From an uncultured Alphaproteobacteria bacterium (GTDB lineage: Bacteria; Pseudomonadota; Alphaproteobacteria; RF32; CAG-239): 64,000 bases of DNA. Position 1 is the stretch's first letter; the number at the start of each line of letters is the position of its first letter. Below, one piece after another: positions 29,796 through 57,575 of the stretch. The stretch spans positions 46,244-110,243 of the forward strand of contig CALYAY010000002.1 in assembly GCA_944393695.1 (NCBI GenBank), written 5' to 3'. The position numbers and the translations under genes are program-made. Below the pieces are notes generated by a model, which worked only from the letters and a program-made list of their open reading frames with translations, ran no database searches and was not told the DNA's origin.

Positions 29796-29849
29796 AACTT
29801 CCCGCCCTTGTCTTTCCGTTAAGAAAGAAAAAGGCAGCGGGAAAAAGGG

Positions 29850-30287
29850 TTATTCAACATCCCAGGGAAAAACTATCCACTGTTCGGGAAGAGCACGGGC
29901 AAAAATACCGGCATCCGCACCCCCCTGAGGTTTGGCATAAACACAGGCAAAATGAGCCTGCGGAAATTTTTTACGGAGAATCTGAAAAGTACGTCCGGTA
30001 TCTGCCAGATCATCAACAATCAAGGTATGCTCATCAACGACATCTATATGACACTCAAGCTCAATGTCTTCATCCCGGCGGCGTTCGTAATTGTGGTCAT
30101 AGCTGGACATGTTGATGGTCTGGGTCTTGCGGATATCCAGCTCATAGGCCAGTATTCCGGCCGGAAGCAAACCTCCCCGGCTGACCGCGATGATTTGCGA
30201 ATAATTTCCTGAAACTCTGATTTTATCGGCAAGATTCTTAACATCACGATGAAAATCCTGCCAGCTGATATAATATTTTTCGCTCAT
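29850..30287 (-). CDS. gpt: xanthine-guanine phosphoribosyltransferase
   Basis: 145 aa. AVSRGGL.P, SSYDH, and the PRPP-binding VDDLADTG motif. Confidence 0.8.
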   Translation of the reverse strand: MSEKYYISWQDFHRDVKNLADKIRVSGNYSQIIAVSRGGLLPAGILAYELDIRKTQTINMSSYDHNYERRRDEDIELECHIDVVDEHTLIVDDLADTGRTFQILRKKFPQAHFACVYAKPQGGADAGIFARALPEQWIVFPWDVE

Positions 30288-30296
30288 TACCTGTCC

Positions 30297-30824
30297 TTAG
30301 CCGTGTTGTGCTTTTATTTTGTAAATATATTCGATTACTTTGTTGTCATCCCATTCGGCAGCCCCGCGGATACGTCCGATTTCTTTGCCCTGCCGATTAA
30401 CCAGAACGGTGTTGGGCGATGTGAATATACCGAGGTCAGAGGCCAGATTGCTGTGTTCATCAGTATAAAACTCCATGCCGTCGGCTCCGAATTTGTCAAG
30501 GAACTCTCGCTGTTCAAAGCTGTCTTTCCATTCCTGGGACGGAGAAATCAGAATAACCCTGATACCGTTTTCCTGCGTTTTGAGGGCAAAATTTTTAACC
30601 TCATCCAGTTCTTTTATGCAGGGAACACAATGACGGGACCAAAACATGGCCAGAACAAAATCATCCGGAAAAGAATCAAGGCTGATTTGTGCTCCGTCAG
30701 AACGGGTGACTTTACGTTCGGGCAAATCCCGCGGCGTGTCGTAAATATTAACGCCTTTTTGTGCCGCAGCGGCCGAAAAGGTAAAACTTACGGCCAGTAA
30801 TATAGAGCATATTTGTTTTATCAT
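30297..30824 (-). CDS. TlpA/ResA-like periplasmic thiol:disulfide oxidoreductase (thioredoxin fold)
   Basis: Start placed at MIKQICSILLAVSF (signal peptide). CxxC active site WSRHCVPC. The ORF track's N-terminal extension has no support. Confidence 0.7.
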   Translation of the reverse strand: MIKQICSILLAVSFTFSAAAAQKGVNIYDTPRDLPERKVTRSDGAQISLDSFPDDFVLAMFWSRHCVPCIKELDEVKNFALKTQENGIRVILISPSQEWKDSFEQREFLDKFGADGMEFYTDEHSNLASDLGIFTSPNTVLVNRQGKEIGRIRGAAEWDDNKVIEYIYKIKAQHG

Positions 30825-30908
30825 CTTGATAACTGAAATATAAGTTTTGAGTTTATCCCTGATTAAGAGTATATAATGTTTATATTTAGAATAAAAAGGT
30901 TTCAAAAT

Positions 30909-31041
30909 TATGAATAATAAAGTGTTTTTATGTGCGGTGCTGGCCGTGGTTATTTTTGCGGGATTGACGGGATGCGGCAAAATTTCCAAGCCGGAACCTT
31001 ATGAAGGCAGCGGATATCCTCATTCATATCCGCGCTATTGA
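30909..31041 (+). CDS. small putative lipoprotein (44 aa)
   Basis: MNNKVFLCAVLAVVIFAGLTGC lipobox. Below the ORF-track size cutoff. Confidence 0.3.
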
Positions 31042-31056
31042 TAAAGGATAAAATCT

Positions 31057-31746
31057 ATGGCGGAAGAAAGCAACAAATATATTGACGAGATGATTCCCTA
31101 TGTGGAATTTGCCGATAATGCCAATGAGCGGACACCGTGCGTGCTGGTGCTGGATTGTTCAGGTTCAATGCGCGGTGAACCGATTAAGCAGCTTAACACC
31201 GGGTTGAAAGCCCTGGAAAAGGAACTGAAAGAAGACATAGACGCCAGTTCGCGGGTGCAGCTGCTGATTATCAAAGCTTTTGGCAAAGATGAAGCCGTTG
31301 TATCTTCGGACTGGATTGATGCCATGAATTTCGAGGCACCGGAGATGGAAGCCGGAGGACTGACGCCTCTGGGTAAAGCCATGGAACTGGCTTTGCAAAA
31401 AATAGAAGAGCAAAAGTGTTTGTATGACAGCTGCGGTATTACCTCCAAACGACCGTGGATTTTTCTTATCAGCGACGGAGAACCGACAGATTATGACTGG
31501 GAGATTATTGCAGAAAAGTGCCGTTATGCCCAGAAGAATAAAAAAGTCGTTATTCATGCGGTGGGAACTCAGGGAGCAAACCTGGAAAAACTGGCCAAGT
31601 TTTCAACCATAGCTCCGAAGCGTTTGAGCGGACTAAAATTTACCGAATTCTTTTTGTGGTTGTCGCGCAGTGTTTCCTGTGTTTCAAAGGCGGCACCGAA
31701 CGTTCCGGATTTGTTGGAAGATACGGATGACTGGAATGCGAAGTAA
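31057..31746 (+). CDS. von Willebrand factor A domain protein, TerY-like
   Basis: 229 aa. MIDAS motif VLVLDCSGSM, later SDGEPTD. AAGGA SD. Stop overlaps the start of the PP2C gene. Confidence 0.8.
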   Translation: MAEESNKYIDEMIPYVEFADNANERTPCVLVLDCSGSMRGEPIKQLNTGLKALEKELKEDIDASSRVQLLIIKAFGKDEAVVSSDWIDAMNFEAPEMEAGGLTPLGKAMELALQKIEEQKCLYDSCGITSKRPWIFLISDGEPTDYDWEIIAEKCRYAQKNKKVVIHAVGTQGANLEKLAKFSTIAPKRLSGLKFTEFFLWLSRSVSCVSKAAPNVPDLLEDTDDWNAK

Positions 31747-32476
31747 AGTCAGGGTAGTGGCGGCCAGTGTATGCGGCCCGATGCACCGCTACCGGAAAAT
31801 GCCTTGTCAGGATTGTTTTAAGCACAAAACCGGCCGGCGCAATTTTGTGGCCGTGGTGTCTGACGGAGCCGGATCGGCCCGGTATGGCAAAATCGGAGCA
31901 CGGGTAGTCTGCGAAACATTAACCGATTTGCTGGCGGAATGTGATTTTTCAACGGTCAAAACCCGGATTGTGCAGGCAATTGAAACCGCCCGCGGCCGGC
32001 TTATCAGACATCGGTTTAACAAACAAAAAAATACAGAAGGACTGCTTGATTTTTCGGCAACCCTGGTGGGAGCCGTATGCAACCGCGGACGAGGAATGTT
32101 CTTTCATATCGGCGACGGAGCCGGTATTGCCCTGAGCAACGGAGATTATGAACATTTCGTGGCAACCAGGCCGGAAAACGGAAATTTTGCCTGCGAAACT
32201 TTCTTTTATACCATGGATGACTGGAAAGAGAGCCTGCGTTTTACAACATTTGAAAATGCCAGCACATTATTTTTGATGACCGACGGGGTGACAAATTTTG
32301 CCTTTTCGCCGGACTACCGGCATATTGAGAAAGGTTTTATTGCTCCGATTAATGATTTTTTGCAAAAGGATATGTCAAAAGGCAAAGCCGTATGGGCGCT
32401 GAACAATACGCTGAACACACCGCAGGCAAAAAAACTGAATTCTGATGACAAGACTTTGTTATGGGCACAGTTATGA
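31727..32476 (+). CDS. PP2C-family Ser/Thr protein phosphatase
   Basis: Motifs VVSDGAGSARYG, HIGDGAG, LMTDGV. Start MTGMRSK overlaps the vWA gene's last codons. Confidence 0.75.
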   Translation: MTGMRSKVRVVAASVCGPMHRYRKMPCQDCFKHKTGRRNFVAVVSDGAGSARYGKIGARVVCETLTDLLAECDFSTVKTRIVQAIETARGRLIRHRFNKQKNTEGLLDFSATLVGAVCNRGRGMFFHIGDGAGIALSNGDYEHFVATRPENGNFACETFFYTMDDWKESLRFTTFENASTLFLMTDGVTNFAFSPDYRHIEKGFIAPINDFLQKDMSKGKAVWALNNTLNTPQAKKLNSDDKTLLWAQL

Positions 32477-33942
32477 TTGAACAGCCGGATTTGGAAAATA
32501 TAACTTATTCCGCCATTTATGCCGACGGGCGGTTTGAGCGGATTACTTTGGGCAGCATGGTTAACAAAGGCGGTGCCGCAGGGCGGATTTATCTGGTAAA
32601 GGATTATCCGTTGCTGGTGGCAAAAATTTTTCACAGCCGCAACCGGAGTTCTTCCAATCGCAAAAAGCTGGAAGCCATGCTGTTAAACCGTCCAGATTTT
32701 CCGCCGGCAGTCAAAGACGGCGTGGAATATGTGCAAATTGCCTGGCCGGTAGCGGTTTTGGAGGATGAAGACGGTTTCTGCGTCGGTTATCTGATGCCGC
32801 TGATAAAAATGGACGAGGCAGTGTCTCTGGATCATCTGATGCAAAAAGCCATCCGCAAAAAGCTTGGGCTTTCGGAAAAATATTCATATCGGATTTTTGC
32901 GGCATATAATGTGTCATCGATGGTAGCGGCATTGCATGAGGCCGGACATTATATCGTGGATTTAAAACCGTCCAACGTATCGGTATATCGTGATACAATG
33001 ATGGTCGCGATGGTAGATTGCGACGGTTTTTCGATTAAGGGCGAAAGAGGAACCCGTTATCCGGCCGATTTTGTCAGCGAAGAATATATTTATCCGGAGG
33101 GAATGGAACAGTCCTGTGACGAGATGGGCGAAGAGCAGGATAAATTTGCATTGGCGGTGATGATTTTTAAGCTGTTGAACAGCGGCATACATCCGTTTTC
33201 GGGTGTACCGCGCAAAACCGACAGCGAAATGCTGACCATTCAAAACAGAATTGCCCAATATCATTATGCCTACGGATTGTGGCCGGATACTTATCAGGCC
33301 CCGCATCCGTATTCTATTCACGAATATTTTGACAAGAAAACCCTGGAATTGTTTGAGCGGGCGTTTGTGCGCGGCGGAGTCCGGCCTTCGGCGCAGGAAT
33401 GGAAGGAACATTTGCATTATCTGCTGCATCATTTGCGGAATTGTCCGAAGAATCCCGACCATGTTTATTTTACCTCAAAGGGCTGCGGTTTGTGCATGGC
33501 AGAAGAAAGATTTCGCGGTGTCCTGCAGGATGTGAAAAAACAAAAGGAAACACCTTTGAAACTGCGGGGAATGGAGGTTTCGGAAATATCGGTAGAAAAA
33601 ATGAACCGCGAAAAAGCCGAAAAAATCAGCGAAGATGCCAAAATCAGACGCTGGACTTTGACCGGGGTGGGCGTTTATCTGCTGTTTTTCGGCCTGTTAT
33701 TCAAAATTCTGGCTCCGGCAACGGAATTTTTACAGAAAATCGGACTCGGAATCCAAGCGGTTATCGTTACTTTTATAATGCTGGGAATTAATACCTTTAT
33801 CCGTAAATACCGTGAGAAACTGCCTTTGCTGCAGAATCGGGCATTGGCACAGATGTTGCAGGTCTATGCGCTTATCTGCATCATTATCGTGCTGGTAACG
33901 CTGAACGACATTCCCAAAGGGCTGTTATTGCCGGCTTTGTAA
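32461..33942 (+). CDS. Hanks-type Ser/Thr protein kinase with three C-terminal TM helices
   Basis: 493 aa. Catalytic loop VDLKPSN, DCDGF (DFG-like), APE-like region. C-terminal hydrophobic helices. Start overlaps the PP2C stop. Confidence 0.8.
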   Translation: MGTVMIEQPDLENITYSAIYADGRFERITLGSMVNKGGAAGRIYLVKDYPLLVAKIFHSRNRSSSNRKKLEAMLLNRPDFPPAVKDGVEYVQIAWPVAVLEDEDGFCVGYLMPLIKMDEAVSLDHLMQKAIRKKLGLSEKYSYRIFAAYNVSSMVAALHEAGHYIVDLKPSNVSVYRDTMMVAMVDCDGFSIKGERGTRYPADFVSEEYIYPEGMEQSCDEMGEEQDKFALAVMIFKLLNSGIHPFSGVPRKTDSEMLTIQNRIAQYHYAYGLWPDTYQAPHPYSIHEYFDKKTLELFERAFVRGGVRPSAQEWKEHLHYLLHHLRNCPKNPDHVYFTSKGCGLCMAEERFRGVLQDVKKQKETPLKLRGMEVSEISVEKMNREKAEKISEDAKIRRWTLTGVGVYLLFFGLLFKILAPATEFLQKIGLGIQAVIVTFIMLGINTFIRKYREKLPLLQNRALAQMLQVYALICIIIVLVTLNDIPKGLLLPAL

Positions 33943-34055
33943 AGAGAAAAGAAAGATTATTTAGGGAAAATCGGCATATTTTGCTACACAAATCGTTTTT
34001 TTTATGCTAGTGTCAGCTCAGTTGTGTAAATTTTGTTAATTAACAGGAAAAAACA

Positions 34056-35444
34056 TTGATTAATTTAAATCCGATTGTCCTTTCAGGAAAGGAAGTTTTG
34101 CCGCTGATCGAGGGCGGAAAGGGCATTAATGCCAGCAACGGTTTCAGCTCGGGCGCCTGGGCCAGAGAAAACTGTGTGGGAACATTTTCCGGCGTCAGCC
34201 CCGATTTTTATGATGAAAAGGGCAATGTCGTTCTTGAAAGATTTTTCAAGAAAAACCGCAAAGAGCGTCATGAAGAAATGGTGGAATATGCCATCAGGGG
34301 CGGTGTGGCTCAGGCGGAAGTGGCTCATGAACTGTCAAACGGAAACGGCCGTATCCACATGAACATGCTCTGGGAAATGGCGGATTCCGAAAGAATGCTG
34401 ACCGGTGTTCTGGAACGGGCCAAAGGTTTAATCCACGGAATCACCTGCGGAGCCGGACTGCCGTATCATCTGGGCGAGCTGGCTTCAAAGTTTGGTGTGT
34501 ATTATTACCCGATTGTTTCATCGGCGCGGGCTTTTCAGGTGTTGTGGAAAAGAGCTTATTCCAAATTTACCGAATATCTGGGCGGTGTGGTATATGAAGA
34601 TCCGTGGCTGGCCGGCGGACATAACGGTCTGTCAAATGCCGAAGATCCCGATAAGCCGCAAAAACCTTATGAACGGCTGGTGGAGCTGCGCAGATTCCTG
34701 ACAAGCATTAATCTGAAAGAACTGCCGATTATTCTGGCCGGCGGCGTGTGGTCGCTGGACGAATGGAAAGATTATATTGATAATCCGGACATCGGAAAAA
34801 TTGCTTTTCAGTTCGGCACCCGGCCGATGATTACCAAAGAAAGCCCGATCAGCGATGCCTGGAAAAAAGTGATGATGCAGGTTAAGAAGGGTGATGTCAT
34901 TTTGCAGAAATTCAGCCCGACGGGATTCTTTTCTTCAGCAATTAAAAATACCTTTCTGGAACGTCTGATTGAGCGCAAACAGGGTGAAGTGGCTTTTTCC
35001 GCCGAGGCAAACACCGAGTTTTCTCATCCGCTGTCCATTAACGAGCGGAAAACGGTTTATATTAAACAGGAAGATGTTTCCAAAGCCGAGCAGCAGCTGA
35101 GCGCCGGTTTTACGGACATTCAGGAAACACCCGACAACACGGTAGTGTTTATGACCCCGGAAGAAGTTAAGCAGATGAAACAAGACCGTGCAAACTGCGT
35201 GGGATGTTTATCGCAATGCCAGTTTTCCACCTGGTCAAAAGCCAGCGGAACCACGGGAAAACTACCGGATCCGCGTTCATATTGCATTCACAAGACGCTT
35301 TATGAAGTGGGACACGGCGGCAGCGTGAAAGATCACCTGTTGTTTGCCGGACATCAGGTTTACCGGTTTGCAACGGATCCGTTGTATCGAAACGGGATTC
35401 CCTCGGTGAAAGAACTGATTGAACGGATAAAAACCGGACAATAA
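34056..35444 (+). CDS. FMN-dependent TIM-barrel oxidoreductase, nitronate monooxygenase (NMO)-like (TTG start)
   Basis: 462 aa. Gly-rich N-terminal motif PLIEGGKGINAS and later ILAGGVWSLDEW resemble NMO/FabK-type proteins. Family assignment is from memory and is uncertain. Confidence 0.45.
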   Translation: MINLNPIVLSGKEVLPLIEGGKGINASNGFSSGAWARENCVGTFSGVSPDFYDEKGNVVLERFFKKNRKERHEEMVEYAIRGGVAQAEVAHELSNGNGRIHMNMLWEMADSERMLTGVLERAKGLIHGITCGAGLPYHLGELASKFGVYYYPIVSSARAFQVLWKRAYSKFTEYLGGVVYEDPWLAGGHNGLSNAEDPDKPQKPYERLVELRRFLTSINLKELPIILAGGVWSLDEWKDYIDNPDIGKIAFQFGTRPMITKESPISDAWKKVMMQVKKGDVILQKFSPTGFFSSAIKNTFLERLIERKQGEVAFSAEANTEFSHPLSINERKTVYIKQEDVSKAEQQLSAGFTDIQETPDNTVVFMTPEEVKQMKQDRANCVGCLSQCQFSTWSKASGTTGKLPDPRSYCIHKTLYEVGHGGSVKDHLLFAGHQVYRFATDPLYRNGIPSVKELIERIKTGQ

Positions 35445-35663
35445 TCAAAAACGGGCCTCGGATGATGATTTGAGGCCCGCTTTTGATGAACGGAAAAAAC
35501 AAAAGAAGTAAATCCCGCTTACCCGGTAAATCAAAGATAAAAAACAAATCCACGAGTTTTTTATTGACTTTTAGCTAAATTTAAGCTTGATTATACACAC
35601 TGACCGGTGTTAAGATTAATGCCTGAGAAGTAAGATTTTTTAATATTTTGTAAGGAATAAATT

Positions 35664-55194: not shown

Positions 55195-55284
55195 TGGCGG
55201 AGAGAGAGGGATTTGAACCCCCGGTACGCTTACGCGCACAATTGATTTCGAGTCAACCGCATTCGACCACTCTGCCATCTCTCC
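55195..55284 (-). tRNA. tRNA-Ser (anticodon CGA)
   Basis: Minus strand reads GGAGAGATGGCAGAGTGGTCGAATGCGGTTGACTCGAAATCAA...GGTTCAAATCCCTCTCTCTCCGCCA. Long variable arm, CGA anticodon loop, CCA end encoded. Confidence 0.85.
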
Positions 55285-57469: not shown

Positions 57470-57520
57470 AAAAACCGCCCTTTCGGACGGCCTTTTTAAT
57501 TGGAGCGGGCAATGGGATTC
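57470..57520 (-). repeat. Direct-repeat copy 2: native tRNA-Gly 3' end and terminator
   Basis: See copy 1. The hairpin GGCCGTCCGAAAGGGCGG plus T-run acts as a terminator on the minus strand. Confidence 0.8.
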
Positions 57521-57575
57521 GGACCCACGACATCAACCTTGGCAAGGTTGCGCTCTACCCCTGAGCTATACCCGC
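57501..57575 (-). tRNA. tRNA-Gly (anticodon GCC)
   Basis: Minus strand reads GCGGGTATAGCTCAGGGGTAGAGCGCAACCTTGCCAAGGTTGATGTCGTGGGTCCGAATCCCATTGCCCGCTCCA. Confidence 0.88.

Follow-up and report, generated by a model that had tools for sequence, protein, structure and literature searches.

The window analysed here, a 64,000-nucleotide stretch of the genome of an uncultured alphaproteobacterium, carries three consecutive open reading frames (ORFs) on its forward strand between positions 31057 and 33942 (31057-31746, 229 amino acids; 31670-32476; 32461-33942). An earlier note on this DNA described them as a translationally coupled triad encoding a TerY-like vWA protein, a PP2C phosphatase and a membrane-bound Hanks-type Ser/Thr kinase. 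Profile searches supported these domain assignments, recovering Pfam VWA (E=1e-6), PP2C_2 (E=1.3e-36) and Pkinase (E=1.1e-9) with every score beyond the gathering cut-off. The motifs from which the triad had been recognized (DCSGSM in the vWA protein; DGAGS, GDGAG and TDGV in the phosphatase; VDLKPSN in the kinase) were all found, and were invariant in 84 orthologues. The loci of relatives used for comparison carry L numbers and include the Escherichia coli K-12 locus (L005, 2149039-2153128) and an independent assembly of the same species as the window (L087).

The stop/start overlaps described between the three genes are real, with start codons slightly displaced from those first given. The start of the PP2C gene overlaps the stop codon of the vWA gene. 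Its likeliest position is ATG 31727, giving the 249-residue product seen in relatives and a 20-nt overlap, or ATG 31736, giving 246 residues and an 11-nt overlap, which is the start called in L087. For the kinase, the likeliest start is ATG 32473 and not 32461. The resulting 489-residue product is 100% identical to database entry P0001 and is also called in the independent assembly; this start forms a 4-nt ATGA overlap with the PP2C stop codon (32473-32476). Such coupling is frequent but not universal among relatives, the PP2C and kinase genes of L003 being separated by a 17-nt gap. No sign of pseudogenization was seen: 83-84 of 85 orthologous loci were intact with matching ORF lengths. The approximate ratio of nonsynonymous to synonymous substitution rates (dN/dS) of the triad genes was 0.06-0.22 (vWA, ~0.06; kinase, 0.13; PP2C, 0.22), at mean pairwise protein identities of 89%, 69% and 61%, respectively. 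All three triad proteins are intact and under purifying selection, with their catalytic and metal-binding residues kept. On the strength of the genes called in relatives, several ORFs running antisense within the vWA gene were set aside as spurious.

The metal ion-dependent adhesion site (MIDAS) of the vWA protein comprises D33, S35, S37, T103 and D140. DCSGSM occupies residues 33-38 (31153-31170), the MIDAS threonine lies in GLTPLG and the aspartate in SDGEPTD, and all were invariant in the 84 orthologues (motif invariance was judged over 83-84 orthologues). Indeed, the protein was nearly invariant over residues 14-229 in this set. It was 42% identical to E. coli YegL (E=8e-49) and 32% identical to plasmid TerY, and the three have in common a C-terminal signature, FFxW[LV]SxS[VI]SxxS; S203 and S210 are among the few columns beyond the MIDAS residues that are invariant across the vWA protein, YegL and TerY. 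The conserved C-terminal helix and tail read FTEFFLWLSRSVSCVSKAAP. The AlphaFold model (mean confidence score, pLDDT, 78) shows a vWA fold with the C-terminal serines in a helix and a disordered tail. Foldseek matched this model to MIDAS vWA domains and to ArnB, which was also the best sequence match in the PDB (8s05, E=0.0076). The gene is preceded by its own Shine-Dalgarno-like AAGGA. Conservation of this order in the vWA protein is not usual for a signalling accessory, and defence genes show the reverse pattern.

The phosphatase was 27% identical to E. coli PphC (E=4e-15), and its acidic metal-binding motifs DGAGS, GDGAG, TDG and DDKT were invariant among orthologues. Hydropathy analysis detected no transmembrane (TM) segment or signal peptide in either the vWA protein or the phosphatase, and both are predicted to be cytosolic.

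The third protein is laid out as a kinase domain (residues 1-320), a zinc knuckle, a charged linker and three TM helices. As judged from its sequence and its predicted structure, it has the hallmarks of a Hanks-type kinase: a Gly-rich loop, catalytic Lys, Asp and Asn, a Mg-binding Asp, an APE-like motif and a bilobal fold. Foldseek ranked PknB first and also returned PknA, both over the N-terminal 320 residues. Invariant residues include G33/G34/G37, K51, D163, K165, N168 and D182-C-D184-G-F, the catalytic loop D163-x-K-P-x-N168 lying in the sequence YIVDLKPSN, as well as P208-E209, D223, R304 and C324/H330/C338/C341; the alpha-C glutamate, E67, is not strictly kept (Thr in P0054). The last four invariant residues form a predicted metal site, a zinc knuckle of the form C324-x5-H330-x7-C338-x2-C341 (33442-33495) that was invariant in 47 orthologues and in YegI, and residues 322-341 were modelled as a small beta-hairpin and helix. 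No OB fold was found in the kinase by Pfam or in the AlphaFold model.

Hydropathy and AlphaFold agreed on the three C-terminal TM helices noted earlier (residues 394-478; 33652-33906). The hydropathy segments spanned residues 394-417, 419-443 and 455-489, and the helices of the model (pLDDT 78) residues 373-407, 409-423, 425-446 and 456-477; the chain stops 11 residues past the last TM helix. The kinase is thereby predicted to be anchored in the inner membrane by three helices with almost no periplasmic mass. Residues conserved on its predicted periplasmic face were G424, G426, Q428, N478 and P481. A search of 1.84 billion representative sequences with a profile of the kinase, whose output comes without genomic context, returned 7113 relatives, 5642 of them at E<=1e-10, and 1031 clusters (50% identity) at E<=1e-30. 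Only one 50%-identity cluster, truncated fragments aside, covered the full profile. All others aligned only at ~10-345, corresponding to the kinase and zinc knuckle, and continued into a basic/proline-rich linker, at least one TM segment and diverse extracytoplasmic domains that include ankyrin, Sel1 and SH3-like repeats. The three-TM tail is specific to the present lineage, a bare three-helix bundle replacing the linker, TM segments and extracytoplasmic domains of the relatives.

Features of the triad locus. Positions are those of the window.
Feature	Position	Strand	Basis
Xanthine phosphoribosyltransferase gene gpt, left end of the block	29850..30287	-	NCBIfam PRK09177, E=9e-43, over cut-off
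TlpA/ResA-like periplasmic thiol:disulfide oxidoreductase, 178 residues, signal peptide	30297..30833	-	Pfam Redoxin/AhpC-TSA, NCBIfam TlpA
Candidate promoter of sigma-70-like type (TTAAGA-18-TAGAAT) ahead of the lipoprotein gene	30863..30892	+	Consensus scan, weak
43-residue lipoprotein gene, first of the putative operon	30910..31041	+	Read from sequence; conserved position
TerY/YegL-type vWA protein, predicted cytosolic, 229 residues	31057..31746	+	Pfam VWA; YegL and TerY homology
PP2C_2-family Ser/Thr phosphatase, 249 or 246 residues	31727..32476	+	Pfam PP2C_2, E=1.3e-36
Hanks-type Ser/Thr kinase, predicted membrane-anchored, 489 residues	32473..33942	+	Pfam Pkinase; YegI homology
FabX-like FMN/[Fe-S] acyl-ACP dehydrogenase/isomerase homologue	34056..35444	+	PDB 7e1q/9lt5 (Helicobacter pylori FabX), E=7e-22
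Strong intrinsic-terminator-like hairpin, 12-bp stem and T-run, after the FabX-like gene	35452..35479	+	Only strong one in the block

The closest relative of the triad is E. coli yegL-pphC-yegI, which has the identical gene order vWA-PP2C-kinase with all three products homologous (42%, 27% and 29% identity, respectively). The alignment of the kinase with YegI (E=6e-32) spans the kinase domain into the zinc knuckle, and pphC and yegI share an ATGA-type overlap, as do the PP2C and kinase genes here. Both kinases have DxD in place of DFG (DSD in YegI; DCD here, in VDCDGF), a non-HRD catalytic loop, the Cys-His-Cys-Cys knuckle and a membrane anchor without an extracytoplasmic sensor domain. The present kinase is the less divergent of the two, since it keeps the canonical K-P-x-N where the YegI loop reads VGDxxQxS. 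It is also shorter, 489 residues ending in the three-helix bundle against 646-648 residues in YegI, whose two-pass topology and large cytosolic C-terminal region it does not match. The E. coli neighbour is yegD (Hsp70-like), whereas the present triad is accompanied by lipoprotein, TlpA-like and FabX-like genes; both sets are chromosomal and lie without defence genes nearby. As a separate observation, yegD (an Hsp70/actin-fold ATPase) follows the E. coli triad, and a 2026 paper reports that overexpression of yegJ induces yegD; no Hsp70-like gene lies beside the alphaproteobacterial triad.

The view that such triads are essentially uncharacterized holds for their physiology. It does not extend to enzymology, since YegI and PphC have been studied (10.1101/819920; 10.1101/303594): YegI is an active Mn/Mg-dependent inner-membrane kinase that autophosphorylates on serines despite its DSD motif and without a sensor domain (10.1101/819920), and PphC dephosphorylates YegI (as cited in PMC13232886). 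A TerY-P triad consists of a TerY-like vWA protein, a PP2C phosphatase and a Ser/Thr kinase with a C-terminal zinc ribbon (PMC10542128; PMC4978471; first defined by Anantharaman 2012). A MIDAS vWA protein, an adjacent PP2C and a predicted kinase-zinc ribbon are all encoded here. The TerY-P-like assignment made in the earlier note therefore stands as to domains, TerY signature and zinc ribbon, with its closest affinity shifted to YegL-PphC-YegI. With moderate confidence, the triad is assigned to the YegL-PphC-YegI branch of the TerY-P family and read as a self-contained Ser/Thr phospho-switch, encoded on the chromosome and passed on by vertical descent.

Membership in the TerY family raises the alternative of a tellurite or metal-stress module, in which metal would be sensed at the MIDAS of the vWA protein and resistance functions of the Ter type would be under the control of the triad; TerY-P triads were indeed first predicted to be metal-sensing phosphorylation switches (Anantharaman 2012, summarized in PMC10542128). 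The kinase has a counterpart on the IncHI2 ter plasmid (25% identity, E=1e-7), and the ter-plasmid phosphatase is also of the PP2C_2 family. The plasmid identities (32% for TerY and 25% for the kinase) are nevertheless below those to YegL and YegI (42% and 29%). Moreover, the ter-plasmid triad adjoins terZABCDE/terW, and that version has several TerY paralogues, a vWA-TerY_C protein and a 545-residue PP2C. None of these partners is found here, and no TerZ/A/B/C/D/E/W/X or TerY_C protein was listed beside the triad in the window, L001-L004 or L087, the loci for which per-gene neighbour lists were made (genes of the other loci were clustered, and the clusters only partly annotated). The metal-stress alternative is very improbable.

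A role in defence, as raised in the earlier note together with a role in stress, was weighed on the same neighbourhoods. The triad would in that case be a stand-alone TerY-P anti-phage system or the regulatory arm of a restriction or CoCoNuT-like system, its kinase sensing infection and the triad triggering abortive infection or an effector. Protection against T7-like phages has been reported for triads of the TerY-P-like type (PMC7699616; PMC10542128), and such triads are often accompanied by McrBC/CoCoNuT or DNA-processing modules (PMC10542128). The experimentally tested anti-phage TerY-P of Gao et al. 2020 has a kinase with an OB-fold fusion (PMC10542128). That system shares the three-gene vWA/phosphatase/kinase logic of the present triad, which differs in having a zinc ribbon and TM tail in place of the OB fold and in lacking a defence-island context. 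The PADLOC models, run at E<=0.01 and then at E<=10, gave a marginal TerY match for the vWA protein (E=0.016), none for the PP2C and, for the kinase, only kinase-domain matches to PD-T4-6/MkoA, that to the PD-T4-6 models being weak (E=1e-5). No ter, DNA-processing or restriction genes occurred among the neighbours of the window, L001-L004 and L087 or in the recurrent annotated clusters of the 80 best-matching related loci, nor did any nuclease, helicase, McrBC or other defence gene recur among annotated neighbours. The recurrent ones were gpt, TlpA-like, FabX-like, type IV pilus, SH3 and M20 genes. No relative turned up when viral contigs were scanned with the kinase alignment, and a phage or prophage origin was rejected. 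Compared with the ter- and conflict-associated TerY-P systems, the present triad is predicted to be membrane-anchored and is strongly conserved across the lineage loci examined. Its presence in nearly all of these 80 loci, with very low dN/dS, is the opposite of the patchy, fast-evolving behaviour of defence genes. The defence part of the stress/defence proposal is thus unsupported, and this explanation is considered very improbable.

The triad proved to belong to a larger conserved block. Relatives of the kinase with 64-79% identity are abundant. A genome-collection scan with the kinase matched at least 264 species-level genomes, and locus-level results refer to the best 80 of these, which are all of the same lineage. 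All 80 derive from uncultured gut Alphaproteobacteria, including Candidatus Scatocola, "Proteobacteria bacterium CAG:495" and metagenome-assembled genomes from human, chicken, deer and mouse gut. Nearly all have the same block, in the order gpt and TlpA-like redoxin on the minus strand followed by lipoprotein, vWA, PP2C, kinase and FabX-like on the plus strand, and the outer flanks vary. In the commonest arrangement the left flank is a type IV pilus cluster and the right flank holds SH3 and M20 peptidase genes, other loci having cmk-rpsA or different genes. The pilus cluster beside most relatives' blocks is type IVb-like, with T2SSE, T2SSF, several Bundlin/PilS-type pilins and a second T2SSE ATPase (loci L006-L085; for example L010 1-6000 and L003 13277-21458). 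The archaeal vWA/kinase Arn system regulates the type-IV-pilus-like archaellum, a parallel to the pilus flank that may be coincidence.

In the window, the 5.6-kb block from gpt to the FabX-like gene sits between rpoN and hpf, separating them by 5.8 kb. These flanks, rpoN and hpf-ptsN, were seen in the window and in L087 alone; neither rpoN nor hpf occurred within 8 kb of the triad in any of the 80 related loci. rpoN and hpf-ptsN are normally neighbours in Proteobacteria, and the block splits the usually contiguous lptB-rpoN / hpf-ptsN. GC skew differed in sign between the block (+0.14) and its flanks (-0.16 and -0.09); the positive skew was confined to the vWA-to-FabX-like stretch (region viewed, 29800-35660), the remainder of the 64-kb window being negative. 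In relatives, the skew of the block agreed with that of co-oriented flanks. The split of rpoN from hpf, the reversed skew and the lack of either gene near the triad in relatives favour a recently acquired genomic island inserted between rpoN and hpf, much as the earlier note had suspected an insertion. Related species nevertheless carry the same seven-gene block, with the housekeeping gene gpt included and mean protein identities of 58-89%, mostly beside the type IV pilus cluster, and for this reason its genes are taken to be ancestral to the lineage. The block borders showed no integrase, transposase or tRNA gene and no convincing repeats, whether direct or inverted, so mobile-element borders were rejected, and the only Rfam matches in the window were tRNAs at 55198-55284 (-) and 57504-57575 (-), unrelated to the triad. 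The arrangement was identical in the independent same-species assembly. What stands of the suspected insertion is its disruption of rpoN-hpf; recent acquisition is improbable, and the data fit a block relocated or inverted within the genome, ancestral rather than acquired.

Directly upstream of the vWA gene lies a conserved 43-residue lipoprotein gene that had been overlooked in the first reading of this DNA. Its product reads MNNKVFLCAVLAVVIFAGLTG continued by CGKISKPEPYEGSGYPHSYPRY, a Shine-Dalgarno-like AAAGG precedes it, and 15 nt separate its end from the vWA start. An equivalent ORF ending 8-24 nt before the vWA gene was detected by regular expression in 81 of 83 informative loci, and the remaining two also have a lipoprotein ORF, slightly farther upstream in L076 and recognized by eye in L082; L003, L004 and L087 each have a called gene of 43 residues there. 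The mature peptide was 22 residues long in 78 of 81 loci and follows the pattern C-G-K-[MV]-[SA]-x-P-x-P-x-[EP]-G-S-G-Y-P-H-x-Y-P-[RK]-x, with C1, G2, K3, P7, P9, G12-S-G-Y-P-H17 and Y19-P20 near-invariant. No Pfam or NCBIfam family matched the lipoprotein at threshold, and a word-indexed homologue search returned a single 98%-identical sequence and nothing beyond. LptM was considered as its identity and is not supported, with NCBIfam NF047847 scoring 14-20 bits (best 20.4) against a cut-off of 27.7 and Pfam LptM_cons E=0.48; these sub-threshold matches span the signal peptide and lipobox alone, not the conserved EGSGYPHxYPR nor the mature CGxKGPL region.

Downstream of the kinase, the gene first described as NMO-like is instead FabX-like (PDB 7e1q, E=7e-22, residues 6-313). 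H. pylori FabX, an unsaturated-fatty-acid enzyme, is a decanoyl-acyl carrier protein (ACP) dehydrogenase/isomerase with flavin mononucleotide (FMN) and a [4Fe-4S] cluster, built of an FMN TIM barrel with a catalytic His and a C-terminal four-Cys subdomain whose cysteines are C300/C304/C308/C320 (PMC8626469). The present homologue keeps the catalytic GGH and has a cysteine cluster of the form CxxCxxxC...C, compared with Cx3Cx3Cx11C in FabX. It differs from FabX by an insertion of ~75-90 residues, and its identity is under the 50% level that the FabX authors used for homologues. Those authors state that homologues are rarely tied to healthy human gut flora; the present lineage is nonetheless gut-derived. 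The FabX-like protein had a mean pairwise identity of 80.5% and a dN/dS of 0.10. The proposed survey of its co-occurrence with the triad showed that it follows the kinase in ~74 of 80 loci, at a fixed spacing.

On the other side, the TlpA-like redoxin gene adjoins the operon divergently in ~79 loci (mean pairwise identity 50%, dN/dS 0.31), and gpt is present in ~75 loci (58%, 0.25). A 230-residue minus-strand ORF at 30297-30989 was rejected as an over-extension of the redoxin gene, whose true start is ATG 30833, the products of relatives being 175-178 residues long; so extended, it would run across the lipoprotein gene of the opposite strand. A 183-residue ORF at 30249-30800 (+), antisense to the redoxin gene, looks spurious.

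The lipoprotein, vWA, PP2C and kinase genes probably form one transcription unit, possibly with read-through into the FabX-like gene. No terminator-like site lies between the kinase and FabX-like genes, nor elsewhere in the block before 35452, and the FabX-like gene may be co-transcribed with the triad. An alternative that is quite possible, though held to be the less probable course, is that the functional unit is the triad only. The lipoprotein, FabX-like, TlpA-like and gpt genes would then be housekeeping genes that merely adjoin it, the lipoprotein perhaps being a small outer-membrane lipoprotein like LptM. The adjacency evidence is confined to one lineage, the FabX-like gene can part from the triad, LptM is matched below threshold by the signal peptide and lipobox (20.4 against 27.7 bits), and E. 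coli yegL has no equivalent upstream gene. On the other hand, the lipoprotein ORF is kept near the vWA start in 83 of 83 loci despite many flank rearrangements, the LptM matches miss the conserved EGSGYPHxYPR part, and the kinase is without the periplasmic domains carried by its relatives in other lineages.

Under the preferred reading of the triad as a YegL-PphC-YegI-type phospho-switch, and by analogy with YegI and PphC, the kinase would autophosphorylate on its activation segment and the PP2C would reset it. The MIDAS vWA protein would serve as a phospho-regulated adaptor or output, a role suggested because of its extreme conservation, the family-wide invariance of S203 and S210, and the precedent of ArnB. 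It might be phosphorylated on its C-terminal tail, or its MIDAS metal might bind a phosphorylated or acidic ligand, and it may couple the state of the membrane or envelope to a conserved cytosolic partner. Sulfolobus ArnB is a vWA protein phosphorylated by the Hanks kinase ArnC, which switches the state of its complex (PMC6509490; PMC12852372). Like the present protein it is a MIDAS-type vWA, and in the Arn system it is the phosphorylated element of a Hanks-kinase/phosphatase switch. The Arn system differs in being archaeal, in its FHA/Zn-ribbon partner ArnA, which has no equivalent here, and in its phosphatase, PP2A and not PP2C; with sequence similarity marginal, the likeness is a mechanistic analogy only. 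The lipoprotein, to judge from its strict co-location alone, may supply the missing extracytoplasmic input. Synteny suggests membrane-lipid synthesis (FabX-like), envelope redox (TlpA-like) and the type IV pilus as targets. The triad behaves like a housekeeping envelope/stress signalling device of a gut lineage, not like a mobile defence or tellurite-resistance cassette.

Several observations weigh against this interpretation. The tests made here pinpointed no substrate, stimulus or output of the triad. The autophosphorylation serines of YegI, S160 and S162, align with C183 and G185 of the present kinase. The TM region is the least conserved part of the kinase, with ~50-60% column conservation, which is weak for a specific receptor site. 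The links to the lipoprotein, FabX-like, TlpA-like and gpt genes rest on adjacency in one lineage and could be inherited synteny, and the FabX-like gene has been relocated away from the triad in ~6 of 80 loci. Promoter-like sites in the region were no commoner than in shuffled sequence, so that the operon structure rests on gene spacing and missing terminators. The dN/dS values are approximate, with dS (~1.3) near saturation, and the "core" status of the block is inferred from a tally of kinase-encoding species.

A more far-reaching version, considered rather unlikely, is a four-component trans-envelope device made up of a lipopeptide sensor, the bare-bundle kinase, the PP2C and a vWA output that docks on a conserved cellular machine. 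Its extracytoplasmic sensor or co-receptor would be the 22-residue lipopeptide (CGK..P.P.EGSGYPHxYPR), serving a kinase stripped of all periplasmic domains and left with only the three-helix bundle. The vWA protein would be the phospho-dependent output adaptor of the device, phosphorylated on the invariant serine-rich C-terminal tail, and would dock on a conserved machine; going by synteny, candidates for it are membrane-lipid synthesis (FabX-like) and the neighbouring type IV pilus system.

Comparative genomics had already described the triad family, and biochemical work exists on the E. coli counterpart. New here is a lineage-conserved, fixed-block variant with a lineage-specific kinase tail, an exceptionally conserved vWA protein and a co-located 22-residue lipopeptide. 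vWA/PP2C/kinase triads are widespread, the profile of the kinase and zinc ribbon alone yielding the 1031 clusters given above, and in the literature they mostly figure as adjuncts to ter operons, restriction systems and defence islands. The present triad behaves like a housekeeping set, kept in one block and with a vWA protein far more conserved than gpt (89% vs 58%), which counsels caution against automatic annotation of vWA/PP2C/kinase triads as defence systems. Testable candidates also emerge from it, with the lipopeptide or the membrane as input and the serine-rich tail of the vWA protein as phospho-target. If true, the four-component device would provide a first input and output for the YegL/PphC/YegI family, long an orphan.

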